Source: Eledone cirrhosa (taxonomy: Eukaryota). Taken from it: a stretch of DNA of 64,000 nucleotides. Positions 16,184 to 63,810 of the stretch are shown here, piece by piece. A model generated the notes under the pieces. It searched no databases. It saw only the letters and a program-made list of their open reading frames with translations, and was not told the origin of the DNA. The stretch is taken from contig OZ024740.1 in the NCBI GenBank assembly GCA_964016885.1, positions 181,908,001 through 181,972,000 of the forward strand, written 5' to 3'. Numbering within the stretch: the first letter of the stretch is position 1; each line of letters begins with the position of its first letter. Position numbers and translations under genes: made by a program.

Positions 16184-16323
16184 ATATATATATATATATG
16201 TAGGAGGTGAGTTTTATTGTAGTACAATAAAGTAATGCAGATATCGGATAAGAAGCACTCTACAGTTTGTAGGACTGGAGTATACATAATATAAGATCAA
16301 AAGATGGTTAAAGGAGTTCCATG

Positions 16324-16394
16324 TATTTTATTATGCGCATTTCAAAAACAAACATCATCATGCAATAATATTTGTGTTTTCATCAGATAAAACA
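16324..16394 (-). ncRNA. Minimal type I HHR in the PLE-1 pLTR
   Basis: tgttttat CTGATGA aaacacaaat...atgtttgtttt t GAAA tgcgca TA ataaaata; palindromic stem III. Confidence 0.8.
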
Positions 16395-17578
16395 GGAGAA
16401 CATGATATGAAGGCTAAAAAACACTTGTGGATAGTGCAGTTTTAAATCAACATATGAAAGGTGGTTTTAGATTGATGTGTGATATTGGGAAAAATATTTT
16501 ATTTAGAGAGGGGGGGGTGGAAAGGATGAAAAAGAGGAGGAGATGAGAGTGAAGGTGGAGAGGGAGAGATGGGTGATAGCGAGAAAGAGATAGTTTTTAT
16601 AACTGAGAGAAGATATATTGTTTTACATAGAGAGGTTGAAAACCGTTGGAAGATGATGTATAAATTAAAAGAATTTGAAAATTAACGAAGGGAAAAATAT
16701 GTACGAGGAAAAAATATTTTATTTAGGGAGGGGGGGGGGCGGTGGAAAGGATGAAAAAAGGGGAGGAGATGAGAGTGAAGGTGGAGAGGGAGAGATGGGT
16801 GATAGAGAGAAAGAGATAGTTTTTATAACTGAGAAAAGATATATTGTTTTACATAGAGAGGTTGAGAACCGTTGGAAGATAATGTATAAATTAAAAGAAT
16901 TTGAAAAGTAACGAAGGGAAAAATATGTACGAGGAAAGAGATGGGAGTTTATGTATGAAGATAGAGAGAAAAAATAATAGTTGCGGATGAATATTCTAAC
17001 GTCAAAAAGGTGTATGTTGATAAGTATTGTGGCAATTTCAAAATTAACGAAGAGAAAAAATGTTTAAGGTTTGTGTGTAGAAGGATTTGAGAAAAATAAT
17101 GTGAAGTTAAAGTTTGTATATTGAAGGAATTGATGATATGTGCGAAGAAAGAGTTAATATGTATTAAAAAATTATTAAGGTTTGTGTATTAGATGATTTG
17201 AGAAAAATAATGTGAAGTTAAGGTTTGTATATTGAAGGAGTTGATAATATGTGCGAAGAAAGAGTTAATATGTATTAAGAATGAGTTCGTTGATGGGGAG
17301 AAAAAAATAATAAATTAAGGATGAAATTGAGATTAAAAAGTTTTATGATAGAGAGAAAAAATAATAATAATTGCGGATGAATATTCTAACGTCAAAAAAA
17401 CAAATGTATATGTTATGAAGGATTTTACAAGGTGAAGATAGAATGAGGGTAATGAGTAAACAAGTATTATAGAGTGTATAATGCCCTTTGAAGTAAGGTA
17501 GGAAGATGGGTATATTTTAAAGAGGTGTATGTATATGTGCCTTTGAGAAAAGATTCTAAATTGATAAAGAATTGAATA

Positions 17579-19964
17579 TTAGCTGTATACTTTGTGAAAA
17601 GTCCTATGGAATTTATGCAGGCAGATAGAAAACAAATCTGTACGTCTATTTATTATAGAATCTAGATTAGAGATAATGGTAAATTTTTAATTTAGGCAGA
17701 GATTACAGATTTTAGATAGAGAGCTGTTCAAGTATGAGAATGCAGAAGAAACCTTCTTCCAAAAGATGGTATATTTAATGTTTTTGTCTTTCAAGGACCA
17801 TATGAGTTCTGAGAGAGCCGTGTTGGTTCTTTTAAGTTTGTATTTAAAAGATGAATGGTGATTATAGAGACGAGCTTTAAAAGAGGTGGAAGTGGAGCCA
17901 AAATAGGTGAAGGAATTGGTGCTAGTTATAACTTTACATTCATAAATTAAGTTTTTATCAAGACAATGGTTGTTGAGAGGACATTTATTTTTAATGCGGC
18001 AGTTGCAATTAGAGAGATTATTAATGAGTGACCTAGTGTTATCTATAGAAGGAATTGGATTGGAGAAGTTGTTTGCGATAGGAATAATAGGAATAATAGT
18101 TTCTTGATTTAGAGTTGGATTATGAACATTTAGCGAAGTTGTGTTTGACGTTGTATTTGGGTTTACAGAAGTTAGCCTAGGGTTTACAATGACGTCGGGA
18201 GTACTATTACTGTTATTATGAAATTCAATGTTGGAAGGAAGAGATTTAGTATTTAGTATTTTATTGTTGTGTTTAGAGATGATGTTGGAAATATTGGAGG
18301 ATGTAGAATAAGAAAATTTGATGGTGTGTTTGTTAAATATTTCACTATAGATATGTGAGGGAGGGAAGCATTTATTTAAGGCACTAAAAAATAATTTAGG
18401 AATATTGTTATTAATAGAGATGGAGAAAGGAGCATTATACCAGATTATGTTTTTGTATCTAGGTCTTTTATTAAAATTATTGGAATGATCATGATTAATT
18501 ATTCTACTGTAAGTTTTTCTAGAATTTGTTTCTTTACTATATTTGATTTTATCTGGATAGCCGGCTTTAGAAAGTGCGTTATTATAGTAATTGGCGTTAG
18601 CATCAAAGATGTTTTTATTAGAAGATATGTTAGATATTCTTTTTCCAATATTACTAACTATAGCATTCTTGATATTGGTAGGATGGTTAGATTTAAAGTT
18701 AACATAATTTAGGTTCTCATTGTTTTTATGGTAAGGGTAATATAGGCCAGTGTCAAGATTAAGAGATACATCCAAGAAATTAGCTAGTTTGATACTATTA
18801 TCAAATTCAATTTTTAGGTTATGTTGGTTAAAGAGATTACGTATATTGTTCTTAATAATATTAAGGTTAACTATATTGCAATTTAAGATAGTAAAGAGTC
18901 CATCGTCACGATAAATTCCACCGCGAAGTTGAGGAATTTTCCGACTCAAAGAGTTCAAAATAAAGATACCAATTAAATCAGTCAATTGGGATGAATCGGA
19001 TGCTCCCATTGTGATGTCGAAGTTGTTAAAGGTATCGGCTCTGGTCCAATATTCGTTGTTGAACTCTAGGATGGTTTTACGTGCGGTGAGGATGATGTGA
19101 AGTTCATCTGTGGTGATGTCAGAATATTTAAGTGCGAAAGATAGAGCATTATTGAGAAGTGAAGGCGAAATGGAGGAATAGTAGCTGGCAATATCAAATT
19201 GAATAAATTTTAGTTTGTTTTTATTATCCAATTTGTTGAACCAGCCAATCACTTCAGAGGTACCAAACCATAAATTTAGGTTCAAAGAAGAGCAATTAGA
19301 ACTAACCTGTGGGATAATTCTATCCAAGATGGCTTTACTAACAACCCCCAGATCAGATTTAGAGGGGGCGATTAATCTAACAGGTAGTTCAGTGCGAAAA
19401 TTGTTTTTGTGATCCTTGAGATTTATCCTTGGAGTTCTTGGGAGGAATGGTTCGGTCTTTTTTTCAATGCCAAGTTTTGACATAATCTCAGAGGCTTCAA
19501 GGTTTATGTATTCTAAATTTTCATGGTTGGTTTTACGATACTTTTTCCTAAGTTCATTTAGGATAAGGTTGTTATAATTATCCTTGGAAATATCATATAA
19601 GTTATTGGTTTTGTCAGAGTGGACTAAAATATTTTTTGAGGAATTTAGGTTAGAAATTGTGTTCTTGAGATTTACAAGGTGCTCTTGTCCTTTGTAAGGG
19701 TATCTCTTGAATTTAAGATTTTTTATTATTTTAGTTAATTCTTCCTCGAATTGTACTAGATTTTTGTTGGAAGGAGGATTTCGTCTAGAATTAAATAGAT
19801 GATCAAGGAAGTTATGTTCTTTGGTATGGAAGTTCCCTTTTAGGCGCTGGTCATAGAAATAGGCTGTCCATCTAAGTCTTCTTACGAAGGAGTCAGTTCT
19901 TTCAATAAGAAGTTTGGTGAATTCAGATGTCTTTAGTTGAATTGGTTATGTTGTAATAATCCAT
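17579..19964 (-). pseudogene. PLE RT + C-terminal GIY-YIG polyprotein (Hydra-clade-like), disrupted
   Basis: RRLRW, SDKT, LKDHK..RLIAPSKSDLG, FDI..YY, TMGASDS, YRDD, FLDVSL, CNCRIKNKCPLNNHCL, LIY..YFG, CNLC. The frame is open from ~19930 to 17687. There is a frameshift after MDYYNITNSTKDI and a TAA at the catalytic Glu position. Confidence 0.9.
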
Positions 19965-21881
19965 GTTGTAGAAGAAGAGGTAAAAGACCATCAAAAGGTA
20001 TCCAATATGAGAGTAAGCGCTCAACCGTTAAGGAGCAAGTTAATGTAGGAAGGCTAAAAAACACTTGTGGATAGTGCAGTTTTAAATCAACATATGAAAG
20101 GTGGTTTTAGATTGATGTGTGAAATACAACGTCAAACACAACTTCGCTAAATGTTCATAATCCAACTCTAAATTAAGAAACTATTATTCCTATCGCAAAC
20201 AACTTCTCCAATCCAATTCCTTCTATAGATAACACTAGGTCACTCATTAATAATCTCTCTAATTGCAACTGCCGCATTAAAAATAAATGTCCTCTCAACA
20301 ACCATTGTCTTGATAAAAACTTAATTTATGAATGTAAAGTTATAACTAGCACCAATTCCTTCACCTATTTTGGCTCCACTTCCACCTCTTTTAAAGCTCG
20401 TCTCTATAATCACCATTCATCTTTTAAATACAAACTTAAAAGAACCAACACGGCTCTCTCAGAACTCATATGGTCCTTGAAAGACAAAAACATTAAATAT
20501 ACCATCTTTTGGAAGAAGGTTTCTTCTGCATCCTCATACTTGAACAGCTCTCTATCTAAAATCTGTAATCTCTGCCTAAATTAAAAATTTACCATTATCT
20601 CTAATCTAGATTCTATAATAAATAGACGTACAGATTTGTTTTCTATCTGCCTGCATAAATTCCATAGGACTTTTCACAAAGTATACAGCTAATATTCAAT
20701 TCTTTATCAATTTAGAATCTTTTCTCAAAGGCACATATACATACACCTCTTTAAAATATACCCATCTTCCTACCTTACTTCAAAGGGCATTATACACTCT
20801 ATAATAATTGTTTACTCATTACCCTCATTCTATCTTCACCTTGTAAAATCCTTCATAACATATACATTTGTTTTTTTGACGTTAGAATATTCATCCGCAA
20901 TTATTATTATTTTTTCTCTCTATCATAAAACTTTTTAATCTCAATTTCATCCTTAATTTATTATTTTTTTCTCCCCATCAACGAACTCATTCTTAATACA
21001 TATTAACTCTTTCTTCGCACATATTATCAACTCCTTCAATATACAAACCTTAACTTCACATTATTTTTCTCAAATCATCTAATACACAAACCTTAATAAT
21101 TTTTTAATACATATTAACTCTTTCTTCGCACATATTATCAATTCCTTCAATATACAAACTTTAACTTTACATTATTTTTCTCAAATCCTTCTACACACAA
21201 ACCTTAAACATATTTTCTCTTCGTTAATTTTGAAATTGCCACAATACTTATCAACATACACCTTTTTGACGTTAGAATATTCATCCGCAACTATTATTTT
21301 TTCTCTCTATCTTCATACATAAACTCCCATCTCTTTCCTCGTACATATTTTTCCCTTCGTTAATTTTCAAATTCTTTTAATTTATACATTATCTTCCAAC
21401 GGTTCTCAACCTCTCTATGTAAAACAATATATCTTTTCTCAGTTATAAAAACTATCTCTTTCTCTCTATCACCCATCTCTCCCTCTCCACCTTCACTCTC
21501 ATCTCCTCCCCTTTTTTCATCCTTTCCACCGCCCCCCCCCCCCCTCCCTAAATAAAATATTTTTTCCTCGTACATATTTTTCCCTTCGTTAATTTTCAAA
21601 TTCTTTTAATTTATACATCATCTTCCAACGGTTTTCAACCTCTCTATGTAAAACAATATATCTTCTCTCAGTTATAAAAACTATCTCTTTCTCTCTATCA
21701 CCCATCTCTCCCTCTCCACCTTCACTCTCATCTCCTCCTCTTTTTCATCCTTTCCACCACCCCCCCTCTCTAAATAAAATATTTTTCCCAATATCACACA
21801 TCAATCTAAAACCACCTTTCATATGTTGATTTAAAACTGCACTATCCACAAGTGTTTTTTAGCCTTCATATCATGTTCTCC

Positions 21882-21952
21882 TGTTTTATCTGATGAAAAC
21901 ACAAATATTATTGCATGATGATGTTTGTTTTTGAAATGCGCATAATAAAATA
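21882..21952 (+). ncRNA. Minimal type I HHR (inverted-arm copy)
   Basis: Same sequence as the 16324-16394 motif, on the + strand. Confidence 0.8.
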
Positions 21953-24354
21953 CATGGAACTCCTTTAACCATCTTTTGATCTTATATTATATATATATAT
22001 ATATATATTTGTATGTATGTATGCATGCAATTATGTGTGTGTCAGTTTCTCTTTGTGTTTTCACTTTGTATAAACAAGTCCCACTACATAGAAATACAAC
22101 ATGTGAAGAACAGTATCTTAAACATAAACAAATAAAGGGGTCACATCAATAAGGACATCAGGTTGGAGAATACTATCTCAAAATGCTTCAGCCAACCCTT
22201 GGTAGACTAGGAAAATACATGAAAATACAAACAATCATCATCATCGTTTTCCACGGTAGCATGGGACGGGCTGTCCGTTTTGGAGATAATCAGGTCAGAG
22301 GACCATGTTTAGTTCACCTGGGGCTGACTTTTGCTTGGTTTCTACAGCTGGATGCCCTTCCTAACGCCAACCACATTTACAGTGTGTGAAAATAATTGTG
22401 AATAATGTGTTATGGTTTTGAATCATAGTAATTCTTCCACAAATCAGTATCCTTAACTAGAATACAATACACAGCAAATCAAACACTCTATTTTTTATAT
22501 ATAAATAAGGATTGTTTCCCAATTTAATTCAATAGTCTTCATTTATCAGTGTGGCACCTATATATAAAGCGATGCAGTTGTGTGCATGAAATACATGTGA
22601 GAAATCAATCATTTTTGTGTGTGTTTCTTTTATTGTTAAGTGAGTGGAAAGACCCTTTATATTTACTAGGACTGAGATTGAAGGGATGAAGTTCACTTCA
22701 GCTCAGAGATCTATTCTGAATGCTTGCTACATAATGAACTCTGTTTAAAGCACCAAAGGACTTGGTTGTTGTGTTAAATCAAGCAATGGATTGTGATTAT
22801 CACTTCAGAACTCAGAAACCAAAAGACCTGGAACAAATATCTCAAAGCACCTTAACCAATGCTCTCACAATTCTGCAAATCTAATGGCACGTTATTTTAT
22901 TGACCCCAAAAGGGTGAAAAGCAGAATTGATTTTGGCAGCATTTGGATTTTGGGGTCAGAAAGTCAGAACAAATGTCACAAAATAGTCATCCTCTGCTCT
23001 AATGATTCATCATGATAACCATTTCACATCTGTTTTCCATGTTGGCAGGGGTTGGTTGGATCATTACTGTCAGAGACTAGACTGGTTAGAGAAACATGTC
23101 TTGCTAATATGTTTAATATTCGGCAAGTTTTCTCATGGCTGGATGCCCTTCCTTGTACAAACTACTTTACAGAGTGCAATGGGTGCATTACATCATGGCA
23201 ACAGCACCAACATATTAGAAAGAATCTATCAAAATAAAAGTCTTCTACAAAATATAACAGTGAAGAATCATTAGTTTATATGTCTTCATTGGACATTTGT
23301 TTATACTTTTGGTATCCTTATAGTTTGAAAATACAAATTAATATTGTTATTATTACTACTAATCGAATTTTGCGAATTTGCTTGGATTTATTTCTTTATT
23401 TATATCTATCAGCAATTTTATGTATCAAATAATTATCTTTATTATCTAAGAAAAGTTTATTCATTGGTTTTCTTATAGTAAAATATTGTTTTACAAGCCA
23501 ACATTATTGATTTTTGGCTTACTGCTTTTATTTTCATTTTGTATTTTCATTTTTTAAAATCCTTATTAATCAAGTGAGTGAATATGTTTAGTGAAAATAT
23601 GCTTGAATGTGTTTAAACATCTGTAATGTAATTGATTAAATTTTACAGATAATGTGAGCTGTATAGCATTGGAATTGTTCTTTATCTTGGTGTCCAATTA
23701 AATTTAACTTTATTCATTAGCCATTGTCTGTATATGATGTCAGGCTGAAATTTCAATTTTAAATCTATAAGAGAATCAATATTTAACAACTCTATTGATA
23801 ACAACCTACCACAGTGTTCAATGGTATAAAAATATCTTTTTTAAAAGTGTTTGCATTTAATTTCAACCTTTCGTCATGATTTTATCTAAGAAGCTTTTGT
23901 TAAGTTATGTTCCAAACACTTGGGTTGATAATGGAAAAGTTATGTATTTTTACCAAATCCCTTGCAATTCCTGATTAAGTTTATAGACAATGGATTTGAT
24001 AATATGTTCACAATGGGTTAAAATTATTAATACCTGTATAAAATCAGATATTTTCAATATTGAAATTTATAACTCATAATCTTAGATTTGTTGTTGTTTA
24101 GATTCAGGTCAGTTCTGATCAGGCTGACATGGTTAAAGATTTTCTATTCATGCTTATTCCAAACTTTTTCAGGCATACAGTAGTTGCTGGCATGCCTGTG
24201 TGGTTAAGAATTTTTGTTTATATCTACATTGTTTCAGATCCTTTCTTCATATCTCTCTACTTCGTACCTTGGCCAAGCATGTTCTCCACTATACCCTCTA
24301 GATAACTATTGGCTTGTGAGTAAATTTGGTAGATGGAATCTGTTGAAAGCATGT

Positions 24355-29077: not shown

Positions 29078-29150
<73 letters not shown>

Positions 29151-29155
<5 letters not shown>

Positions 29156-30195
29156 ATGAATTAACGGAGGCATAGGCCGTCGTTATTCCCTGTAAATAAT
29201 GTGCTCAAAGGAGAAGAGATCCTGAGCTCTTTAAAATACAATATGTTGAGAAGGTAACACACCAGAGAGAGATATATAGTGCGTTATCAATAATACAGGG
29301 GAAAAAACCACCAGTGTATGGAATCTATAACCTATGAAAGGCAGACTATAGACACGATAAATAAAAATATAAATTAAAGCGTAAATAAATACCTTTATAA
29401 CTATATAACACACGTACAAATCCAAAGATATGTTTCACCAAACAAATCCAAAGATATGTGAAACATATCTTTGGATTTGTACGTGTGTTATATAGTTATA
29501 AAGGTATTTATTTACGCTTTAATTTATATTTTTAATTATCGTGTCTATAGTCTGCCTTTCATAGGTTATAGATTCCATACACTGGTGGTTTTTTCCCCTG
29601 TATTATTGATAACGCACTATATATCTCTCTCTGGTGTGTTACCTTCTCAACATATTGTATTTTAAAGAGCTCAGGATCTCTTCTCCTTTGAGCACATTAT
29701 TTACAGGGAATAACAACGGCCTATGCCTCCGTTAATTTATCGTGATATTTCACTCCTAATAACAGTCGATCCTATCACCGTTTGGTTGAGCACACTTCTC
29801 TGAGTGGCTTTGGGCTGCCCTTTCTAGCAGCTCGTCTCTCAGAGGCCACTGGTTCACTGCCCCTAAACACGCTGTGACTTCTCTCTCCCACGTGTAGCTG
29901 GACAGTCAATTGTAAAATCCTCTTAGTGTTGTCTGAAATGTATGGCCTTACACAAGCTGATGAACCGAGACTAGACCATTTCTTTCAACAAAAAATGTTT
30001 TGGTGAAACATATCTTTGGATTTGTACGTGTGTTATATAGTTATAGAGGTATTTATTTACGCTTTAATTTATATTTTTAATTATCGTGTCTATAGTCTGC
30101 CTTTTATAGGTTATAGATTCCATACACTGGTGTTTTTTTCCCTGTATTATTGATAACGCACTATATATCTCTCTCTGGTGTGTTACCTTCTCAAC

Positions 30196-30200
<5 letters not shown>
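29151..30200. mobile_element. Non-coding HHR element in (TA)n: inverted arm (29151-29441) plus a 545-bp unit with a ~198-bp direct repeat
   Basis: 29458-29656 is approximately 30003-30200. 29151-29441 is the reverse complement of ~29458-29747. Confidence 0.85.
29950..30033 (+). ncRNA. Type I HHR
   Basis: acacaag CTGATGA accgagac...gttttggt GAAA catatc tttg gatttg TA cgtgtgt. Confidence 0.75.
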
Positions 30201-30237
<37 letters not shown>

Positions 30238-30244
<7 letters not shown>

Positions 30245-30596
30245 AAGTTAAATAAAAGTCAAATGATTAAAATTTAGCTTCGTTTATTACTGCTATATAT
30301 ATTTCAGTGACAGCCATCTTTGGCTGTGACCTCTTCAGGCAGTTTGAATTAGTATGGTATAGACATATGTACTTGTCTATACCATACTAATTCAAACTGC
30401 CTGAAGAGGTCACAGCCAAAGATGGCTGTCACTGAAATATATATAGCAGTAATAAACGAAGCTAAATTTTAATCATTTGACTTTTATTTAACTTTATTTT
30501 ACACTACTCCGGAGTAACCAAACCAACCTGCGCACTTTGTCGGGTGCTCCAGCCTGCATACTGAGGTGTTGGTATACAACCAACATAAACTCAAAA

Positions 30597-30600
<4 letters not shown>
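30238..30600. mobile_element. Head-to-head pLTR palindrome in (TA)n with two HHRs (30289-30343 minus, 30396-30450 plus)
   Basis: ~125-bp perfect inverted arms around ~30370; actgc CTGAAGA ggtcacagcc aaagat ggctgtcact GAAA tatata TA gcagt. Confidence 0.85.
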
Positions 30601-30654: not shown

Positions 30655-30655
<1 letters not shown>

Positions 30656-31210
30656 GTTATTCCGGGTTGAATCGGAGGTAACCACAGTAAGTAAGGTACT
30701 CAATACATAGCAGAGTATAAAAGTTTTAATATAGATGAGATTCTACAAGACTAGAACTGTTTCATTCTTTAGAAATCATCAGGAATCTGGGTATCAAAAA
30801 ATAAATATGGTATTTATAGGCCTCTTCAGGTGGTAGGATAGGGTAGGGAGGCGGATGGTTAGAGGACATTGGTTGATAGAAAAGGGAATTCATTAAAAGC
30901 TAATTCTATAAAGCTATAATTTATATTTAGAGTAACAAAGGCAGAAATAATTCTATAAACAAGTTCAGAATGGGTGCCACTCCTTATTTTTAAGTTTCTC
31001 TTAAGCTAACCATGCCTATATTTCAGGTGTTTATAAGATCGTTGGGGGTCAGTCATGGTTGATGGATTTAAAGAATAGGGAAATTCTTTAAAAGCTAATT
31101 CTTTAAGGTTCTACTTAGAGTGACAAAGGGCTAGAGAATTCTATAGACCAGTTCAAAATATTGAGTGCCTATCATACCATTATCTTCAAGTTTCTCTTAA
31201 GCTATATTCC
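30655..31210 (-). mobile_element. PLE-type pLTR/3' end with HHR at 30738-30788 (same family at 32770-32943 plus, HHR 32876-32926)
   Basis: agattc CTGATGA tttc taaa gaat GAAA cag ttctagtc (c/t)tg TA gaatct; ends in (TA)n. Confidence 0.75.
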
Positions 31211-32710: not shown

Positions 32711-32961
32711 CTTATATATATATCTATATGTGTATATATACATATATATATATACAAACACAGACATACACACAGTTTCTTTAGGGACCACCAGATGACC
32801 TCTACCCATCCCACTCCCTACCCTCTCCAACCACCCGAAGAGGCCTATAAATACCATATTTATTTTTTGATACCCAGATTCCTGATGATTTCTAAAGAAT
32901 GAAACAGTTCTAGTCCTGTAGAATCTCATCTATATTAAAACTATATATATATATGTATATA

Positions 32962-33032: not shown

Positions 33033-35045
33033 CATCATCATCATCATTTTACATCCGCTCTTTCCTGCTTGCAAGGGTGGGACGGGTCTTATTCAGCACA
33101 GCATCTCTCCACTTGTCACAATCCGTGCGTCATCTCCACCGTGAGCTTCAGCGATCTGAGGTCTGTTCTCACCGCCCATGTTTTTCGTGGTCTACCTCTA
33201 CCACATCTTCCTTCAACTGGCATTTCCCGGCACTTCTTTACCCATCGGTCATGCTCCATCCACATCACATGTCCTTACCACCTCAGTCTCCTCTCCCGTA
33301 CACTAAATTCTATCCCTCTCAGACACATTTTCTCTCTCAACACATTCACGCTGGGTCGTTCACATACATTGACATTGCACATCCAATGGAGCATGCTTGC
33401 CTCATTTCTCTCCAACTGTCGCATATCCTCTGCAGTTGCTGCCCATGTCTCACTACCATGCAACATCGCGCTTCTCACACAGGCATCATATAACCGGCCT
33501 TTCATACGGAGGGAGAAACCCTTCTTCGTCAGCAGAGGAAGCAGCTCCCTAAACTTCTTCCAACCCGTCCTTATTCTAGACACTATGGCCTTGGAACACC
33601 ACCACCATGCTAATCTGATCTCCTAGGTACCGAAAGCTATCCACCACTTCTATAGCACCCGCCTGCATTTGAAAAATGTGTCTATCAATGCGACTTCTAC
33701 TGTCTAATTTCCCTGTACATCTACTACATACATATTTCTCCCTACCTGTTAGTTTGCCTGCTATCCCACTACATCTCTTGTGTACCCAGGATCTGCATTA
33801 TGTGCATTTTATAGAATTTATGCCAGTTCCTTTTCTGCATATCGAACATGGCCATTTCCCTGACGGAATCAGAGTTTTGTCCTCTTTTCTACTCATCAAC
33901 ACTTTTGTCTTAACTAGGTTCACTCTCAGTCCTCTTGTTGCCAACTGCTGTTTCCATGGCCAGAATTTATTCTCTAGCTCCTCTACTGATTCTGCTATAA
34001 GAACCAGATCGTCAGCATAGAGAAGTTCCCATGGACAGCCAGTCTTAAACTCCTCTGCTATGGCTTGGAGGACTATAATGAACAAGAGCGGGCTGAGGAC
34101 CGAACCTTGATGTACTCCTACTTGTATCTGGAATTCCTCACTAAACTCCATTCCTACTCTGACTTTACTGACAGTACCTCTGTACAAAGTTTGCACTGTC
34201 CTCACAAGCCATTCCTCAACACCTAGTATCCTTAGGGCCACCAGATGACAGATCGGGGTACCCTATCAAAAGCCTTCTCTAGGTCAACAAAGGCTAAGTA
34301 TAGTGGCTTATTTTTCTCTAAGAACCTCTCTTGCAATTGTCTCACCAAGAAGAGGGCATCTGTTGTACTCTTGCCAGGCACAAAACCAAACTGCATCTCA
34401 TCTAGTCTGACCCTTTCTCTAATTAGTTGTGCTAATATCCTTTCTTCCACTTTCATAACCTGATCCATCATAATGATCTATAATTGCTCCTCTCCAGAGC
34501 ATTCCCTTTACCTTTGTAGCAATTTATGAGAATACTGCTGCACCAGTCTTTGGGTATGACACCACCATATATAGTATGATTGATGATGCGTGCAACCAGC
34601 TTAGTGCCTACGTCCCCTGATGCCTTCAGCATCTCAGCAACTATTCCCGATGGTCCAGCAGGCTTACCATTTTTCATTTTCTTAATCGCCTCTTGGAACC
34701 TATATTCGTCAATCTCAATAGCTGGTCCCTCTGTCGGATCTACTGAGGGTAATTTCTCTCTTTCCTATTCGTTCTCCACATTCATCAGTCTCTCATGATG
34801 ACATTTCCAGGCCTCCTTTTTCTTATCATTCGTGACACTAAGTACACCGGCATCGTTCTGGACACATTTATTTCCCAAAACATCCTGATTTGCATTGACA
34901 CACTGCCTTGCAATGTGGAACACAGCACGCCTCATCTTCCCTTCGCAGAACATTGGTAAATCTCCTACTCTCAGCGTCCCTGCGTGCTAAGTACACCTGA
35001 CGTCTAGATTCTCTCTTAGTGGCTGTATATTCTTTCCTACTCCCT
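33030..35045 (-). pseudogene. 5'-truncated RTE-clade LINE (RT with Cys-rich PHD-like insert), frameshifted
   Basis: GPSGIVAEMLKA, QFGFVPGKSTTDA, FVDLEKAFDRVPR, GVHQGSVLSPLLF, LLYADDLVL, WPCSICRKG..C..C..WVHKRC, MLHGSETW; (GAT)n tail. Confidence 0.92.
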
Positions 35046-35382: not shown

Positions 35383-38300
35383 TTACAGACACATACACAG
35401 AGTAGGCCCATTCACTCGGGCCATTCTTGCCTCTCTCACCCATCTTTCAACAAAATGCTGGGAAGAGAGCACTTCCCTCTCTACCCTGATTTTCCTTTTC
35501 AAATGAAATTTGAAAAAGTTAATCAGGGCCTCACCGAAGAGGTAAGTGCTCATCTTCAGCCCTTTCAAACGTGTCCGCCATACTATCTCTTTCGCCATGG
35601 CCACCAGACAGATAAAAACTGCCTGCCCTTCCGGACATGCCTGCACGCATCTCGGACATGCCCGGCTGACGGCACATCCATGCCTGTAGAGTTTATCCCG
35701 AACTGGCAAAACTCCTCGGTAGTACTGCCAGGCCAGGGATTTCTGGAAGATGTCCATAGGCCCCGTCACGAAAGTTCTTCCGAAGAGATTGGCTAGTTGA
35801 TTTTGGTCGACGACTAGAGTTTCCCCAAGTACGTCGTCGCTATCCCCTCCACTAATTCTCTATAGAACGCCAAGGTGGAGTTTCCACCGATCACATTTCC
35901 CGATTGGTCGAGGGCTGTGAGCGCCTGAAGACATTCCCGTCTCCAAGCGCTCCCTCTCGGTCTTCGCTTGACCCGGGACTGCAGCTCCGTCAAGGAGACG
36001 AGATGGGGAAAGGCGCGTCTAGCAAACGGCGCCCGCACCTGATCACCGTCGAGGAAGAGGTGGAGATGTCGTAGCCTGAGCGCGTGTCTGCGCATCATCT
36101 GCCACAGCATGCCCAGCCCTCCACGTAGCGGGTGTTGACAGCAGATAGACAACCATCGGAGCACGTCCCTTCCACAAAAAGCGAAAGAGCAAACGCTCCA
36201 GCACAGTCAGGCGGGGCTTAGGACAAGGGACGACGGTCAGGCGGTAGTAGATGACGGACGTGATGTACGCGTTAGCCACCTCCGTTCGATCTTTGAGGGA
36301 TAGCTTCCTCTCCGCCCATTTCTGGGTGAGAGAAGCCACCCTGCTCGTCACCTCGTCCCAGTTTTTGTCCGTCTGGAAATCCGGCCCGAACCAGATCCCT
36401 AGCAATTTACCGGTCCACCCGTCCAGCTTCCGACGACGCTGTTGGACGGCATGAACCTGCCTCTCCAGGTGCCGCGCTGCAGGCCCACTGACTTTTCCTG
36501 GTTGATCATTGCTCCTGTCACAGCTTCGTATTCTCTTAGTGTTGTGCCGATCGGCTCGATGTGTTTGGCGTTCGACACCACTACGGTGACATAGTCCACA
36601 TATGCTGACACGGATCATCCGCAACGTCTCCAGTTTGTGCAGTAATGTCTCGAGAGTCAATACGTACAAGAGGGACGAGAGGGGACATCCTTGTCGGACC
36701 GAGCGCATGATGATGAACGGTTCCGAAAGGTGAGCGATCACCCTGCACCACAGACCATATGTCGCTATGGCAGCGATCCAGCCTCTGAAGACGGGCGCAA
36801 AGCCAGTCACCCTCAGGACTGCCGCTAGGTAACGATGGTTGACCCTATCGTAAGCTTTCGACTGATCTTTATTGATCAAGGACCGACCCGTGCCAAGTTC
36901 CTTAGCTACCCTCTCCACGATGTATCGCATGAGGTGGAGGTTGTTGTGGATGGATCTACCGGGAATGGTGCACCAGACCACAAACGACAAGCGCCAACCT
37001 CTTTGCTAGCACCTTGGCAAAAATCATGAACTCTGTGTTTAGCAGTGTTATGGGCCTGAACATATCTATGTTATCCCCCTTGTTTGGATCCTTTATCAGC
37101 AGTGCCACAGCTCCTCGGCTCACAGAGCTGGAAATTCTCCCGTTCTGTTGCCAGTTGCAGTAGACGACCGCCAAGAGGCCTCCGAACAAGTCTGGCATCT
37201 GTACGTAAAGTTCATAGCGCAGACCATCCAAACCAGGCGATTTACCCCTTGTGCAGCCAGTCATTGCATCCCGTACTTCAGCGGCTGTTATCGGATTTTC
37301 GCAAAACTCCGCCTCAGTGGCCGAGAGCAGCGGCAGTCCGTCGAGGTAGACACTAAAGACCATCCCTCGATCCGGCCCGCCGCTGCCCCCGAACAGCTGA
37401 GCGAAGTGTCGTTGAAAAGCTTCACACATTTGCCCATGATCGAGTAGCATGCGCCCGACGTGGTCCACCAAAGACCGGATCGTGGCTTTGTTGCCACAAC
37501 GCGCCACCGCCACTAGGGCCCATTGAACGGCTTTCGTCCTCTCGTGTCTGAGAGCACGCACCCTAGCTCTGATAACGCAGCCTTCGTGCTTTGCATTGAA
37601 GAATTGGTCAAGGGCCAATTTCGCCGCACGTATGTCGGTCGCGTTGCCTTTGCTAAGCGCCTCGTCTAATTTTCTAACTAGTTCTCCCTCTGCTCTATTT
37701 TTCTCTATTGCTAAAGCCTTAAACCTAATTGACTCTATTCTAATCGCTCTTTTCAGAGCAAACTACCACTTGTTGTTGACGATGGCCCCCGTCAACGCCT
37801 GCTTAACTAGTTCCCTAACCCGTTCTCTGTAGGCCTTGCGCGCTGGTAAGGACGTGTTTAGCTTCCAGTAGCCGGGTGCTCGTCTATGAAGCCTAACTAA
37901 TTCAAGCACACAGATCATGAATTTGTGGTCCGTGTAGCTGACTATCTTGAATTGTGGACAGCCTATGCTAGATCTATCTATTTCCCTACAAAAACTCTAT
38001 CTAGATATAATCTGGATGACCCTATGCGGTTTGTCCAAGTCCAGATTGGCACATTCGGGAAATCCAATCGGTACCTGTCAGACAGTTCCAAACGCCTGAG
38101 CAGGTTGGTCTCCGCTGGTCACGTCCAGCACCACCAAATTACCGTCTGGGTCCAGGAAGATGGCCCGTATGGCGAGGTCCAAACCTCTCCGAGAAAGCAC
38201 AGAAACTCCTCCCCCCGATCCCGGACGGCTGGGAGATGCGTACACATCGTACGCCGAAGATCGGTGCGAAGGCCCGTGCTTCAGAGATTCTGGTCTCGCT

Positions 38301-38402
38301 GATGGCCACTACATCTATGTTTAGTGACATGATGTCGTTGAGCAGGTGACCCTGCTTCCATGACGACCCCAAGCCATGCGCATTTATTCCGAGTGAGGTC
38401 AT
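35383..38402 (-). pseudogene. Tx1-like ORF2 (APE endonuclease + RT), multiple frameshifts
   Basis: MTSLGINAHGL..ISET, KSPGLDG, FRPITLLNTE, IPGRSIHNN, DQSKAYDRVNH, VRQGCPLS, AYVDY (decayed YADD), CPRC. Confidence 0.88.
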
Positions 38403-40981: not shown

Positions 40982-41012
<31 letters not shown>

Positions 41013-41069
41013 ATATATAAACACACAGATACATGCGGACACATACATATACATGAATATATCCACATA

Positions 41070-42103
41070 TATCATTTGAATTAGTGGTGCCAACCTCAAC
41101 CGATGTTGCTCTATGAATAACTGGGACAAAATAATCCGAATGGATGAGATTGATTCAGTATCAGAGCTATATAATACATTATGAAGAGAGAAGAAACATT
41201 AGATATAATTAATAATAAGATATATCATACCTAAACTTCTTCTTTACTCCTCGACTACGTAGTTTCGTGGCATATTATGCAAAAACACTACATCACAGAG
41301 ATATAGAATTTGTGTGAGGTCTGCCGACTTATCAAGAGGATACCTCATTAAGAGTTTCAAAACACGTCTGTAGGGCGCGAGATAGAATCCGGAAAGACGG
41401 AGGGGGAGTCAATCACGTGATACAGCGGTCAAGAAACAGAGCTAAGCCTCTTATAACCATGAAAAAATACCACGGAGGCGGAGGGGGTACTTATATCAAA
41501 GCCGTAGAAGAGGTGGCTAAGGCGGCGAGAAGTATGAGTAATGGTAGCTTTCCAGCAGTCACTACACTTCAAAGGTTACTCGACCAAAGGGAGTTATAAA
41601 CAATATATAGAAACACACAGACACACGCGGACACATACATATACATGAATATGTGTGTTTCTATATATTGTTTATAACTCCCTTTGGTCGAGTAACCTTT
41701 GAAGTGTAGTGACTGCTGGAAAGCTACCATTACTCATACTCTCGCCACCTTAGCCAACTCTTCTACGGCTTTGATATAAGTACCCCTCCGCCTCCGTGGT
41801 ATTTTTTTCATGGTTATAAGAGGCTTAGCTCTGTTTCTTGACCGCTGTATCACGTGATTGACTCCCCCTCAACCTTTCGGGATTCTATCTTGCGTCCTAC
41901 AGACGTGTTTTGAAACTCTTAATGAATGTAACCTCTTGATAAGTCGGCAGACTTCACAAAAATTCTATATCTCTGTGATGTAGTGTTTTTGCATAATATA
42001 CCACGAAACTACGTAGTCGAGGAGTAAAGTAGGAGTTTAGGTATGATATATCTTATTATTAATTATATCTAATGTTTCTTCTCTCTTCATAATGTATTAT
42101 ATA
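41070..42103. mobile_element. Head-to-head pLTR pair in (TA)n with U3-A8 variant HHRs (41248-41340 minus, 41932-42022 plus)
   Basis: 41168-41617 is approximately the reverse complement of 41653-42103; (t)cctc TTGATAA gtcggca...tgccac GAAA ctacgtag TC gagg(a). Confidence 0.85.
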
Positions 42104-43404
42104 TATATGTCTAATGGTAGCTAAGATGCTTCCATAGGCGGTATGCCAGTTGAGCACTCTATGCTTCTACAGAGCAGAGTATGATAGAATGGAAAAACGA
42201 AAAATCAGTGATGCATTGCAACTCAATTTATTGCGTATTACAATTGTTTCCCCGGCGAACAGCTCGAGGTGCGACCTGTGTGTGGATTGACCTGACTCTG
42301 GATTCACAGGCTCCTCAGACACGTCTATTGATTTTGAAGCACATCCTCTTTCTGGGGTTTCTGACCCTACGGGTATATATCGTCCACATTCATCGTGTTT
42401 GCGCTTCCTTGGATTGATCACTGGTTAGTGACGTCATCATAATTCTGACCACTGGTAGCACCCCACTGACCATCGGGGCGTGAGCTTTCACTCACCCACT
42501 GTCCCATCGGCAAAATTACTGCTGTGTTTGACTGCTTACACGCCCACGCGCACACCCACACATGCACAGAGACACGGACAGATACATAAAGAATAGCTTG
42601 CGTGCTTACTTTCACACATGTACGCACAGAAACATACACACATATCCATGTTTACACACACACATAAACAGTGACACAATTATGTGTGTATATGTACGCA
42701 TGTGTACGTGTGTGTGTGTGTGTATATATAGGTGCATGTATGTGTGTGTGTGCCTCTCTGTGTGCATGTATGCGTATATTTGTGTGACTGTTTAGGTGTG
42801 TGATATGTTTGTATGTTTCTGTGCGTACATGTGTGAAAGTAAGCACCCAAGCTACTCTGTATATATCTGTCCGTGTCTCTGTGCATGTGTGTGTGTGTGC
42901 GCGCTTGGGAGTGTGAGCAGGCAAACACAGCAGTAATTTTGCCGACGGGACAGTGGGTGAGTGACAACTCATGCCCTGTTGGTCAGTGGGCTGCCACCAG
43001 TGGTCAGAATTATGACGACGTCACTAACCAGTGATCAATCGAAGGACGCGCAAACAAGTTGAAGATGGACGTTATAGACCCGTAGGGTCAGAAACCCCAG
43101 AAAGACGATGTGCTCCGAAATCAATAGACGTGTCTGAGGAACCAGTGAATCCAGAGTCAGGTTGATCCACACACAGATCGCACCTCGAGCTGTTCACCGG
43201 GGAAACAATTGTAATACGCAATAAATTGAGTTCCGATGCATCACTGATTTTTCGTTTTCCATTCTATCACACTCTGCTCCTTAGCAGCATAGAGTGCTCA
43301 ACTGGCATACCGCCTATGGAAGCATCTTAGCTACCATTAGACATATATTATGCTCCTTTACATGTACAGCGCTTACAGCCAATCGCCATGGAGTAATTCC
43401 AGTA

Positions 43405-46495: not shown

Positions 46496-46562
<67 letters not shown>

Positions 46563-46584
46563 CATACATATATATATACATACA

Positions 46585-47820
46585 TTAAAGTTCTAGTTTG
46601 TAGGAAAGAAAATAAGGCGCCGGTTCCTTCCGGGAAATGGCCATGCTCAGTGTGTAGGAAAGGCGTAAGTAGAAACTCCATTTTATGTCCCAAATGCAAA
46701 GTATGGGTGCATAAAAGATGTAGTGGGATCATAGGTAAGTTAACTAAGAACATAGATTTTACATGTGGCCGGTGCTCTGGTGCAATAATTAGCAGCAAGT
46801 GCCCACAAAATAATAGCTCTTTCAATTGCGCAGAGGGTTCTATAGAAATAGTGGACAGCTTCCGTTACCTGGGTGACAAAATCAGAAGTGGGGGAGGGCG
46901 CCCTGAAAGTACAGTAGCTAGAGTCAGAACTGGATTGAAAAAGTTCAGAGAGCTTATACCACTATTAGCCGCTAAAGGGTTCTCCCTAAAAATGAAAGGC
47001 AGGCTGTATGATGCCTGCATACGAACAGCAATGTTGCATGGCAGTGAGACCTCGGCATTGTGTGCAGAGGATATACGCAGACTAGAGAGGAACGAAGCTT
47101 GCATGCTCCGCTGGATGTGTAATAGTAATATACGCGAACGGCGAAGCATAAACGAACTAAGGGAAAAATTAGAAATAAGAGGGATCAGATGTTGTTTACT
47201 CGAGAGAAGGCTACGTTGGTATGGTCACGTAATGCGCATGAAAGACGACAGCTGTATAAAAAAGTGCAGGGCAATAAAGATAGACGGTAGCCACGGAGTA
47301 GGCAAACCCAGAAAAACCTGGGACGACCTGATAAACTCCGACCTCACACACTTACACCTCTCCAAGACAATGTCACTGGGCCGAGATCTTTGGCGGCACT
47401 CAGTAATAGAGAAGACACGCCTTACCTAAATACAAAGTAAAACCTACTACAGTCAGTAGGCATCTCTAACAAAATACACCCCCGTCCCACCACCCCCACC
47501 CCATCCACACTGCCCTTTCAATGTAAAGTTATGTTGGTGCCACAACATCCAGGCCGAAACAAATGAGATCGTGTAGGTGTCACGACAAAAAAACACACAG
47601 TCCACGTTGTAATGTGGCCGTGTAGGCAACACGGTAAAAACCTCCCAGTCCCACACTGTAAATGTGGTTGGTGTTAGGAAGGGCATCCAGCTGTAGAAAA
47701 CCCGCCAGAGAGTCCTATGCGAGCAAGACAACCACTCTTGCCTCATGTGGGAAAACTCCCGTCCAAGCCCATGCAAGCGTGGAACATGGACGTTAAACGA
47801 TGATGATGATGATGATGATA
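46585..47820 (+). mobile_element. RTE LINE 3' fragment (ORF to 47429) followed by a SINE-A-related tail with (GAT)n
   Basis: WPCSVCRKGV..CPKC..WVHKRC..CGRC, FRYLG, MLHGSET, RLRWYGHV..GKPRKTW. Confidence 0.88.
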
Positions 47821-48179
47821 AATATATATACACATATATACACATATATATATATAGCATGTATTCATTTTCTACTACCATTTTAAAGGGTCCGTCGAGC
47901 TGCCGATTATAGAGTCGGGTAAGATCGATACAGATCGAACCTTGAGCTGATCACTGGCGAAACGCGCGTCACCTACCAATTAATATAATGAAGGAGTAAC
48001 CAATCGTCCTTGTTATCTTTTCAATATATTACAGAGAAGTGAACCTAAACATCGAGTGCTCACCCGGGTGAACCTGCAGTAACTGCAAGTTACACTCCCT
48101 AGATATTTAGCTCCCTTCTTTGTCGAGCGCTTAGCTGGAACACCGTGGAATTGTTCTACACCACTTCCTCCCTTCGGAT

Positions 48180-51840: not shown

Positions 51841-53015
51841 GACCACACACATCGCAATACGTCCACAAACTTTTTTCCCCGTGTTCCCTATGTCACTTTT
51901 TAACCTGTAAGCCATCGTATTATTCGATCCTGTATATTTTTAGTCACCCACATCCCCACCCCCGCCACCACAAGGCACAACTCCATACCTCAACAATCAT
52001 TAACTTCATTAACATCGCCAACACATACCTTCCCTCCCGAACCAACGCAAGTATGTGTGTCTGTGTGTAAGTATATTTATATGTACAACGCCATCTTCAT
52101 TGGCTCTCCCCCTCCCTCTATCTATGTACTACGCCACCCCCACTGACACCCCACACCCCTCCCTATATATATACACGCGCGCGCATCCATATATGTGTAT
52201 ATATGTATATAAATATTTGTATGTGTGGGTGTATGTGTATGTATGTATGTGTGTGTATATGTATATATATATATGTGAGTATGTGTATATATGTCAGTAT
52301 ATATACGCATTTGTATGTATACAACGTTTTTGTCAGACTAAGAGTGTCTAGGTATGTATCTCCCCATTGATTTGACACCACCAACACATCCACCACACCA
52401 CCACAAACGCCACTACCATAAACAACAACACCACACCCACACGACACACAATAACCAGCCACAAATATACGCCAATCTGTCTACTGACAATCCACTATCC
52501 CCACACCACAGCCCCTCCCAGCTAGAGACCGTCACCAACATCTTATCATCACATCCACCCCCACATGCACTACAGGTGAAAGACAATCCACTACCCCCAC
52601 TCACAGCCCATCCCAGCCAGTAACCGTCACCAACATCTTATCATCACATCCACCCCACATCCACTACAGCCGAAAACATCCCTATGATCTATTCCACCAA
52701 TCAAGACAATTCATATTGACCAACATATGAACTTCTAACTTCATCATATAGCATGTATTCATTTTCTACTAGCATTTTAAAGGATCCGTCGAGCTGCCGA
52801 TTATAGAGTAGGGTAAGATCGATACAGATCGAACCTTGAGCTGATCAGTGGCGAAACGCGTGTCACCTACCATTTAATGTAACGAAGGAGTAACCAATCG
52901 TCCTTGTTATCCTTTCAATATATTACACTCTGTATAGCTCTACACCTCAACACAGAAGTGAACCTAAACATCGAGTGCTCACCCGGGTGAACCTGCAGTA
53001 ACTCCAAGTTACACT

Positions 53016-53046
<31 letters not shown>

Positions 53047-53712: not shown

Positions 53713-53713
53713 G

Positions 53714-53760: not shown

Positions 53761-54339
53761 ATAATAATAAAATTGAAGACTAAAATCCAAAGAGGGCTTC
53801 TTTGCTTAAACTTTAATCTGTTATTTTAATAAATATATATATATATATGGAAAGTTATATTTAAATTGTTGGGTTACAACGAGTAAATATTTATAACTGA
53901 TATAAAAGCACTCGACAAGTATTTGGAGTATATTTACGATATTAAATAAATGGAAACTATATTTATAAAACCATATCTATTTCATTATATATATTTTAGG
54001 GATATCATATTAACAATATGCTATGCCTTCCTCAGACAAAATACAATATAAACAGTTTTATAGATAAATAGATTTGACATACCGTACAACATCGACTTGT
54101 ATTTGAAAAGTTGAATTGGCAGTGAAAAAATTGTACACAGAGAGAAAGAAAGAGAGAAAAAAGGAAAGAAAGACAGAAAACGAAGAAAAAGAAGAAAAAG
54201 AAGAAATGCATGGAACAAAATAGAGAGATGGAAAGATAGATAAAGAGAAGAACTTCATGTAAAGAAACAGATATATATATATATATAGAGAGAGAGAGGA
54301 AATAGAGATAGATATATATATAGAAAACTAGGTAAGCAA

Positions 54340-55822: not shown

Positions 55823-57170
55823 TATATTTAGTTTGATTTATAATTATATGGGAAACTAGCCGATAAATCTTTCGATTTCTTCTTTTTATTCTTTTTATTT
55901 TTATTTTTATTTAAACATTCTTCATGAAAAATTAAGCTACCCTAAAAGTTGATGCTCCAAATATTTCGAATAAACGTTACACTAGATAAACTTCTATATT
56001 AAATATAAGAACACATGTAGACCAAATGGGCATCCTAAACTTTTTGAAATGATTTTTGCTAGATGCGATTTGATAAATAATTTTTAGCTTTATCTGTTTT
56101 TCGACTCTGATGCTTATAATGAACTTGGCAATATATTGTCAATTAATTTTGAAGGGTTGATCTTTGTGGTTTATTTTTATTATTGTAGTATTTTCTAATA
56201 TTTTTATTTTTAATATGTAATATTCTTTCGTAATATTTTTTAGTTTTCTATTTTATTATTATTTATTTATTATTTATTTATTTATTATTATATTTATTAT
56301 TATTATTATTATTGTTATTTGTTTGGTTTTTGTTTCTGATATATATTTTTTATTAATATATTGAAATCTGCTCTCTATTTCTGCTTGATAGATAATCTTG
56401 TAGAGTAAAGACAAGAATAGTAGTAATATAGACTCTATATATATATATGTGTGTATATATATACACATATATGTATACTTAAATTTTTATAGCACAATGA
56501 GAATGTTTTCCGTGGATTTAGGGTTTGCAGAGTTGATCATGTAAATTCACATAGATGTTTGTAGTTATCACATAAACATATGAATTTTTTTTTAAAACTA
56601 AACATAAGATCATTACTTTTCACACATTATGGATACATGTCTCATTCAGGAATACTGATATTTACAATATAGTGGCTGGTTTTTATACATACTAATACCT
56701 CTACATTAAAACATAGGGTTTTTATGCCTCGCCTATGTCTGGTTATTTTTAATTTTTCTCTCTATATAACAGCTGGTTTCTCTCCTAACCACATATATCT
56801 CCCTTACAATAATACTAGAGCTAAATAAATAAATAAATAAATAAATGTATCATTGATACGTTTACTCAACGGATGTCCCACTACCTAGTTTTCTATATAT
56901 ATATCTATCTCTATTTCCTCTCTCTATATATATATATATCTCTCTGTTTCTTTACATGAAGTTCTTCTCTTTATCTATCTTTCCATCTCTCTATTTTGTT
57001 CCATGCATTTCTTCTTTTTCTTCTTTTTGTTCGTTTTCTGTCTTTCTTTCCTTTTTTCTCTCTTTCTTTCTCTCTGTGTACAATTTTTTCACTGCCAATT
57101 CAACTTTTCAAATACAAGTCGATGTTGTACGGTATGTCAAATCTATTTATCTATAAAACTGTTTATATTG

Positions 57171-57236
57171 TATTTTGTCTGAGGAAGGCATAGCATATTG
57201 TTAATATGATATCCCTGAAATATATATAATGAAATA
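57171..57236 (+). ncRNA. Minimal type I HHR in the PLE-4 pLTR
   Basis: tattttgt CTGAGGA agg..catatt gtt aatatg..cct GAAA tatata TA atgaaata. Confidence 0.78.
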
Positions 57237-57276
57237 GATATGGTTTTATAAATATAGTTTCTATTTATTTAATATC

Positions 57277-57372
<96 letters not shown>

Positions 57373-58066: not shown

Positions 58067-58094
58067 GTGGTTACACAATAGTTAGTTCACCATA

Positions 58095-58134
58095 CCGAGA
58101 ACATTTGTTTCACCTTAGCGGGTCTTCAGCTCGG
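58095..58134 (-). ncRNA. Minimal type I HHR
   Basis: ccgag CTGAAGA ccc gctaa ggt GAAA caaatg TT ctcgg. Confidence 0.7.
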
Positions 58135-58344
58135 AATGGTCATGATTATAGGAACAGAAAGGACAACCGTACGAACGCGCATGCGCAGAAACCCTGTCAC
58201 TTCACACAGGCAATACTAGACTGCGTGCGAGAAGTGTAAGGGAGATAACTGCGAAAGTCCGAAAAGTAACCAGGAACTGGTTTTGTATTGATGGAGTTAA
58301 ACACCTCAACAATATGTGTACCCGTCACTACCACACCAATTTGG

Positions 58345-58468
58345 ACTGCCTGAAGAGGTCACAGCCAAAGATGGCTGTTACCGAAATATATATAGGAGCA
58401 CACCTTTAATAAACGAAGCCAAATTTTAAATATTTGACTTATTTATTTTATTTTATTTTATTTTTTAT
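58345..58468 (+). mobile_element. pLTR fragment with HHR, same family as 30396-30500
   Basis: actgc CTGAAGA ggtcacagcc aaagat ggctgttacc GAAA tatata TA. Confidence 0.7.
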
Positions 58469-59263: not shown

Positions 59264-59264
<1 letters not shown>

Positions 59265-59294
<30 letters not shown>

Positions 59295-62696: not shown

Positions 62697-62742
<46 letters not shown>

Positions 62743-63047
62743 CTATATATCTAAAACTAATCAAGTATGATATTGTAATATGTACCATGCTTTCACAAAG
62801 GTTTTTCAGTGGTCATACAGTTGCAATTAAACACATACACCCTCTTAGCCCACCATCGTTTGATTAAGTGGAAAATCTAGGACATGACAGCTGGAAGAGT
62901 GGGTTGCTCCAGCACAAGGTTTGTAGTATTTATATCAAGCAAGAAATAATGAAAGGCAAAGTAAACCTCGGCATATTTGAACTCAGAATGCAGATTCAGA
63001 AAAGATATCCAATGCTCTAAGACTCTCACCAAATCAACTGCCTTATA

Positions 63048-63120
<73 letters not shown>

Positions 63121-63328
63121 ATTATTATAAATGTAAGCTATCGCAGTATTTTGACCAAAGAAATTAAAGAAATTATTTAGCCTAATAGTGGGGTTAAGAA
63201 CCCTCGGAGAAATGTAAAAAGATGAGTATTGACGTACATGTCAATAATCATCTTTTTCAATTTAATTTCTTTAGTCAAAATACGGCGATAGCTTATATTT
63301 ATAATACATATATATATATATATATATA

Positions 63329-63810
63329 GTAGTGAAAGAGGGAGGAATAACATGGTCGGCTGTACAAAAAGGGTTTTATTTATAGTATTAACAATTGTTT
63401 CATTGATCAGGTGAGTCTAAAGGCCGCTAATCACTCGAAATTGCGTCACTCGACATTAAATACAGTGTGTGTCTCTGATCAAGTCATTCCGATGATTTGA
63501 TCAAAGACACACACTGTATTTAATGTCGAGTGACGCAATTTCCAGTGATTAGCGGCCTTTAGACTCACCTGATCAATGAAACAATTGTTAATACTATAAA
63601 TAAAACCCTTTTTGTACAGCCGACCATGTTATTCCTTCCTATTTCACTACTATTACTCCAAGAATAACCTGCATGGGAACTCTCGCGAACCACTACCTAA
63701 CTATGGAAACCTGTTGTTGAGTCAAACAACGCTGTACATTAAAACTATCCACAATACATAGTACTCACAACCTCTAACTGGATTACCTAAAATGATAACA
63801 TGTTATCCCA
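63329..63810. mobile_element. Head-to-head pLTR palindrome in (TA)n (arms 63329-63483 / 63497-63653) with an HHR-like motif at 63486-63594
   Basis: ~155-bp inverted arms; CCGATGA t ttgatca...tgatcaa t GAAA caattg TT aat. Confidence 0.7.

Follow-up and report, generated by a model that had tools for sequence, protein, structure and literature searches.

The stretch of DNA analysed here (the window) comprises 64 kb of the AT-rich, 3.0-Gb genome of Eledone cirrhosa (contig OZ024740.1, positions 181,908,001 to 181,972,000), and all positions below refer to it. We counted about ten insertions of Penelope-like elements (PLEs) in the window, sited in (TA)n runs. One of these, PLE-1, contains one open reading frame (ORF) of 752 amino acids (17687-19945, minus strand), whose motifs and translation indicate a reverse transcriptase (RT) with a GIY-YIG endonuclease at the C terminus. 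On the same strand, its long arm (16199-16480) comprises a hammerhead core at 16386, a small bulged hairpin (stem 1, 16255-16281) and the long end at a TA run, and a second hairpin (stem 2, 20017-20036) lies upstream of the ORF, directly 3' of where the long end falls. The short arm (21791-21990, plus strand) has its hammerhead core at 21890 and stops with the short end at a TA run. Comparison across copies, families and organisms shows that the 3' ends of these elements lie a few bases 5' of such a stem, and the stem is a likely protein-binding site in the RNA that positions reverse transcription; we put the probability of this reading at roughly 60%.

The protein features of the window elements agree with those of the Hydra clade, which Craig et al. 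2021 (PMC8557442; like the other papers cited here, considered in the parts available to us) defined by RW, DKT and CxCx5C motifs and for which they described (TA)n targeting and hammerheads. PLE-1 encodes RLRWTA at residue 23, DKT (instead of DKG) at 111 and the CxCx5C linker as CNCRIKNKC at 647, and PLE-4 likewise has RW and DKT. Also shared are the C-terminal GIY-YIG, the hammerhead in the pseudo-long terminal repeat (pLTR), insertion into (TA)n and the tandem plus inverted arrangement, while the likeness of the window protein to the Hydra proteins in the supplement of that paper was judged by eye. PLE-1 homologues were 31-40% identical among the matches listed (at least 120). The Pfam GIY-YIG model matched PLE-3 weakly (E 0.018) and gave no match for PLE-1, and a simple pattern scan of the PLE-1 endonuclease part, made without alignment to the published CCHH figure, found no spaced H..H pair. 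Judged by these sequence features, the window elements are Hydra-clade PLEs with a C-terminal endonuclease. Many genomic copies of the PLE-1 family have intact 821-amino-acid frames that are 95-97% identical, which suggests that the family was active recently; the pLTRs of PLE-4 are 99-100% identical. Hammerhead cores with a palindromic stem III were predicted at 21890, 16386, 30401, 30338, 57179 and 58350, with another in PLE-2. In PLE-3 (52840-52864) and the 63 kb family (63569-63592), a hammerhead-like core reads CTGATCA, not CTGANGA, and stem II is very short or missing.

Stems and ends recur in the other insertions. PLE-2 has its long end together with stem 1 (42154-42180) at 42103-42180 (minus strand), and its 5' copy (43271-43375, plus strand) holds stem 1 at 43271-43297 and, from 43352, a stem 2 that is degenerate in the window and intact in genomic copy L003. 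PLE-3 (plus strand) has stem 2 at 48110-48130 and stem 1 (52927-52978) with the long end at 52927-53020. In PLE-4, the long end and stem 1 (53908-53929) occupy 53849-53929 (minus strand), the short arm with its hammerhead core at 57179 and the short end occupies 57059-57279 (plus strand), and stem 2 was found in copy L152. Three further insertions are two-armed: 30238-30598 (short end 30238, minus; stem 1 30506-30547 and long end 30598, plus), 41008-42103 (long end 41008 and stem 1 41102-41167, minus; short end 42103, plus) and 63326-63808 (short end 63326-63329, minus; stem 1 with a long insert 63655-63722 and long end 63808, plus). The 30.7 kb family is present as a long arm (30655-30880, minus strand) with stem 1 at 30696-30716 and a short end at 32942 (plus). 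The long arm of the 40.9 kb family (40796-40963, minus strand) keeps the 5' strand of the stem (40878-40886), the partner strand being mutated in the window copy, and the family has short ends at 29085 and 53835. A diverged short arm of the 30.2 kb family, with its hammerhead core at 58350, lies at 58314-58468 (plus strand).

A preliminary description of this DNA had listed ten short-arm junctions and second stems in four 5' copies (PLE-1, PLE-2, PLE-3 and a mini-element), and we recovered all of them at, or within a few bases of, the positions given. The short-arm junction at 42103 (plus strand) is real and is that of the 41008-42103 family; on the minus strand, the long arm of PLE-2 reaches its end in this TA run too. 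In the PLE-1 5' copy at 20036, stem 2 is as described, but the ribozyme and first stem are gone by deletion; in the PLE-3 copy at 48 kb, stem 2 likewise stands and the 5' strand of the first stem is gone. Intact copies of both exist elsewhere. The proposal of two alternative termini held, with the spacing corrected to about 65-100 nucleotides (nt) between ends, or about 155 nt in the 63.3-63.8 kb family.

The stem is built of RCUC, a variable insert, a 2-nt bulge and GAGY followed by RC, and the two stems lie 55-100 nt apart between the hammerhead and the ORF start. Stems from the E. cirrhosa genome have A-U or G-C as their outer pair; across the bulge, A-U occurs in addition, and the pair is Watson-Crick in 15/17. 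Variants between copies are rarer in motif columns (10/80) than in the others (119/441). In a 16-row alignment, 96.9% of the cells are paired and 3 of the 6 pairs changed on both sides, with the structure defined from the same sequences and kinship ignored. The same stem was found upstream of Hydra ORFs in unrelated metagenome contigs: among 47 of 79 sampled loci (selected for an N-terminal match and 79 nt or more of upstream sequence; a few are near-identical), 36 have a stem and 22 have two, spaced 55-83 nt, against a background of 28 in 2350 shuffles and 3 in 306 ORF segments. The bulge-spanning pair is Watson-Crick in 44 of 48 distinct metagenome stems (29 C-G, 15 U-A), as compared with 1, 1 and 8 in other registers. 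In the published Hydra consensus sequences, inspected by eye, 4/6 have the stem, one of them as GCCC/GGGC. Judged by this pattern of paired changes, the stem is a real covarying structure. Two metagenome Hydra loci (L298 and L308) carry U-A outer-pair variants (TCTC/GAGA) upstream of the ORF. Rfam gave no match over the stems in 18 loci (E 0.5), nor among the best 150 of 176 matches in the window, and homology to telomerase RNA elements did not emerge from this search. Pairing of two GAGY-RC strands as a palindrome was considered as another structure and is unsupported, the Y and R positions varying independently.

The position of the 3' ends relative to the stems was mapped on 230 genomic loci, fetched with queries upstream of the short end (four families), one near the short end, one over both stems, which is biased toward long arms, and one protein. 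Each locus had to cover its query, so ends upstream of the query are under-sampled in the queried arm. On 12 references, all of them real copies, we called 477 junctions into a microsatellite, all but 20 of which enter (TA)n, the caller having demanded a microsatellite flank. The zone between 15 nt ahead of a stem and 2 nt within it took in 340 junctions, a further 129 were at a long end without continuation in the reference, and 8 were elsewhere; thus 340/348 junctions with a known continuation are at a stem (with about 25 PLE-3 long ends counted twice, once on each of two references). In the four families with both stems on one reference, 179/180 junctions fall in the stem zones, although these span just about 9% of the sequence. 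Junctions occupy 22/27 TA-like sites close to a stem vs 1/112 elsewhere, and the unused ones include TA tracts of 7-9 nt. The pile-up just 5' of each stem, with TA-rich sites elsewhere ignored, is what the preliminary description had proposed to look for by mapping the junctions of genomic copies per family.

Two other sources of the ends were considered. Random use of TA-rich sites is ruled out by the single stem-distant site used among 112, and the hammerhead cut as terminus is ruled out by the predicted cuts, which in the 7 references with a plausible site fall 35-65 nt ahead of stem 1. The arms run for tens to thousands of bases with no fixed 5' stop. Flanks of (CA)n, (CT)n or (GT)n account for 20 junctions, most of them at a terminus, with 0-3 nt of microhomology; repeat change after insertion is possible there, and they were not used as support.

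De novo clustering of 1410 junctions recovered the motif in families that had not been chosen, alongside other families without it. Among 29 end clusters with a continuation in at least two copies, about half of which are families already searched for, RCTC lies within 15 nt in 19 (background 7.6%) and the full pattern in 11 (0.8%). In contigs of one public sequencing run, which do not give copy numbers and possibly come from the same sample, the summed depth drops from about 580,000 on one side of the PLE-1 long end to 2,300 on the other (about 250-fold), and loose ends into (TA)n occur at both PLE-1 termini. In the metagenome contigs that hold both pLTR copies, 8/8 3' copies entering (TA)n stop at most 5 nt from a stem (6 canonical, 1 variant, 1 degenerate). 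By eye, 11 of all 22 metagenome repeat ends stop 0-5 nt before a canonical stem and 1 before a TCTC/GAGA variant; a script count of 14/22 near RCTC includes two chance matches and one degenerate stem.

Between stem and target lies a short zone that often resembles the target. Of 17 ends represented by enough copies, 16 have a TA run that starts 6-13 nt from the stem (15 within 6-10), and the next six element bases match in-phase (TA)n at 5-6 positions (rG-dT allowed) at 10/16 ends, compared with 211/2560 (8%) in a null that used the same sliding rule. Of the preliminary model, in which the RT would bind the stem and the adjacent AU-rich stretch would anneal to the target, the stem as a structure and an enriched pairing zone are borne out, while the TA-like microhomology it placed at each terminus holds for these ten ends and fails at the other six. 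By sequence match, target pairing appears to be common, not universal.

The two ends are coupled within insertions. From 205 raw arm pairs we obtained 178 unique ones, set aside 10 with a TA run between the arms, and were left with 168 mirror-image pairs, of which 143 combine a long and a short end, 4 are long+long, 1 is short+short and 20 have an unclassified end; mixed pairs thus make up 143/148 of the classifiable ones. Since single-armed copies of both end classes are common, independent choice would yield at most half mixed pairs. The pairs are not copies of one master, as there are 141 distinct insertion structures, and around recurring centres the long arm may be on either side. In 48/114 pairs the short arm extends 5' beyond the long arm by 30 nt or more, in 12 it is the long arm that extends further, and in 54 both starts are within 30 nt of each other; in 19 cases the long arm has little beyond the tail. 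This unequal reach favours two separate primings over fold-back copying, although later deletions could also contribute. Two primings on one RNA would predict that long-arm starts gather at the short terminus; by our own count, about 14/126 fall in a 40-nt window there vs 8-10 in neighbouring windows, at best a slight excess. In the PLE-4 family (L093-L116), unrelated insertions with swapped arms repeatedly have their head-to-head centre about 190 nt upstream of stem 1, a site that may mark an RNA 5' end or a palindromic hot spot. In L036 and L205, the opposite end has only about 10 nt of inverted long-end sequence beside the TA run, which suggests very short second complementary DNAs (cDNAs).

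We propose that the stems most likely explain the one-sided tail of these elements by setting two RT start sites. The endonuclease would cut (TA)n on both strands, and each target 3' end would anneal through about 4-8 nt to the AU-rich linker next to a stem. Stem 1 would serve the priming of one end and stem 2 that of the other, probably via a protein dimer on a single RNA. The two cDNAs would then be joined head to head, or one would be lost, and the 'tail' would be the spacer between the two stems.

Several parts of this scheme have precedents. One-sided tails on inverted pLTR insertions were reported by Arkhipova et al. 2013 (PMC3846280) and in PMC8557442, where they are optional or frequent; here they occur in 143/148 pairs and are tied to a sequence signal. 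The parts of PMC8557442 on the Hydra clade describe no stem pair, junction rule or pair count, and give a tail of 30-40 nt as opposed to 65-100 nt here. For Poseidon_Ac in vitro, Frangieh et al. 2024 (PMC11167929) found that two internal RT start sites bound the tail and that RNA 3' of them is required; the Poseidon PLE cuts and extends both strands, a dimer was predicted, and this one in vitro study, in the parts available to us, did not identify the protein-binding motif. Initiation there lies in an AC-rich stem-loop without target homology, whereas each Hydra end is followed 3' by a covarying stem of its own and often has a TA-like zone. The preliminary description did not mention that the two termini correspond to the published PLE tail, that starts at two internal sites had already been demonstrated in vitro for a Poseidon element, or that the ends are coupled per insertion. 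Telomerase (PMC6125678, PMC8648750) would be similar in its internal template and structured RNA 3' of the template, and perhaps in a short primer-template duplex, to which ten of 16 ends here fit well and six poorly; it differs in repeat synthesis and a 5' boundary, neither of which is found in these elements, and the comparison is an analogy. Full-text searches of the literature and passages of PMC2377424, PMC7229834, PMC6765202 and bioRxiv 10.64898/2026.07.22.740005 yielded neither the stem nor a twin-priming model for PLEs, and subscription papers, Repbase notes or supplementary figures could hold one.

A further counterpart of the model is twin priming by L1 elements, in which both target ends prime on the element RNA and an inversion results. 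There the second site arises by chance complementarity, whereas both sites would be fixed in Hydra PLEs.

A number of observations weigh against this reading. Same-class pairs do occur (L058, L170 and L086, with L087 as a further short+short pair that the script did not pair), two of the five counted above look like fold-back duplications, their flanks being near-identical, and 20 pairs have an end that could not be classified. The genomic loci are top-scoring matches, not a random sample. The covariation of the outer pair may stem from few events, and in isolated folding the pair probability is 0.6-1.0 in 9/16 stems and at most 0.55 in 7, some of which are mutated copies or have wrongly assigned partners. 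The six poorly fitting ends match (TA)n at only 2-3 of 6 nt, and in PMC11167929 the start site is reported to share no homology with the DNA that is cut; the six ends suggest that distance from the stem comes first and pairing second. Furthermore, a non-Hydra family (11756-12693) has ends 55 nt apart and 7/7 long/short pairs with no RCUC stem after the short end. The stem is thus not required for the long/short pattern across PLEs: the coupling would be general and the stem clade-specific, so far seen in Hydra only. This family has a GIY-YIG remnant at 11891-12292 (Pfam E 1e-4). Finally, the sequence fits RNA and single-stranded DNA alike, and the stem could be read by the RT, by the endonuclease or by a host nuclease.

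The last point leads to the strongest alternative, which we nevertheless consider unlikely: the stems could act in DNA, where the endonuclease would recognise them on a transposition intermediate and cut beside them, making the ends cleavage sites and not priming sites. PMC8557442 attributes the tail to endonuclease resolution of an intermediate, and PMC11167929 reports the tail to be necessary for plasmid cleavage by the Penelope endonuclease. In addition, the linker is TA-like as expected of a cut site, the 3' strand GAGY-RC-U resembles a degenerate palindrome, and in several families the stems form under DNA folding parameters too. However, the in vitro RT starts of Poseidon coincide with its genomic ends (PMC11167929), unequal arms would need extra deletions if the intermediate is symmetric, and the covariation implies a single strand, for which RNA is the simplest fit.

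Slightly less probable still is that the stems direct RNA cleavage or termination a few bases upstream, with LINE-like priming from the resulting RNA 3' ends. This predicts the same junction map, and the stem presumably has a superficial likeness to the tRNA D-arm. It leaves unexplained why each insertion has one end of each kind, the predicted hammerhead cuts are upstream of stem 1 and not at the ends, and internal initiation has been shown for Poseidon. We find it improbable that a single priming suffices, with a cDNA from the long end folding back at a palindrome and copying itself to stem 1, and later deletions making the arms unequal. Self-priming was inferred from palindromes at inverted junctions (PMC3846280), and the 54 pairs with nearby arm starts would fit, but the excess of longer short arms (48 vs 12) holds even in the 98-99% identical PLE-4 family, and short-only insertions are common. 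A role in transcription or translation of the ORF, with nearness to the ends incidental, is very improbable: the last stem does lie mostly 34-76 nt ahead of the ORF start in metagenome copies, but an ORF-less mini-element retains the two stems, and in unrelated families and organisms the junctions follow both of them.

This mini-element is a non-coding 542-bp unit (29458-29999; longest Met-ORF 26 amino acids) with a hammerhead-like core and both stems, at 29669-29695 and 29752-29793 (plus strand); the outer pair of stem 2 is mismatched in the window copy and G-C in most copies. It sits in a tandem insertion at 29148-30204 with its long end at 29148-29151 (minus) and its short end at 30200-30204 (plus). 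A first look gave 1546 genomic candidates, and arrays reach up to four units (L087, L088). Like the animal non-LTR retrozymes (PMC7229834; bioRxiv 10.64898/2026.07.22.740005), it is a non-coding, hammerhead-bearing PLE derivative, and the parts of these reports available to us name no cis-signal for mobilisation; the stem pair is a candidate for such a signal in non-coding hammerhead mini-elements. Another apparent mini-element (15465-16181) has 115-bp direct repeats; after its end comes GCTCT, for which no clear partner is present, and a full stem stands about 70 nt beyond. Elsewhere in the window are broken frames of non-LTR retrotransposons (endonuclease, RT-like) that are unrelated to the stems (35383-39741 and 33275-34262, minus; 46560-47429, plus), and a tandem array with higher-order repeats, built of units of about 95 bp (195-4029).

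The element class, the tail and internal initiation were already known, and the stem is apparently an undescribed, conserved cis-element of a known clade. How PLEs choose where copying starts, and what gives their insertions a one-sided tail, have been open for decades; a small, duplicated, covarying stem at a fixed distance from the ends makes both questions testable by a few point mutants, and it also concerns how the closest relatives of telomerase handle their templates. More tentatively, and as a reading less likely than not, a Hydra PLE dimer on both stems of one RNA may prime both break ends at once, with active sites 6-9 nt from the stems as in telomerase. The stem pair would then work as a transferable signal able to turn any RNA into a template, and may preserve an ancestral mode of template handling shared by PLEs and telomerase.

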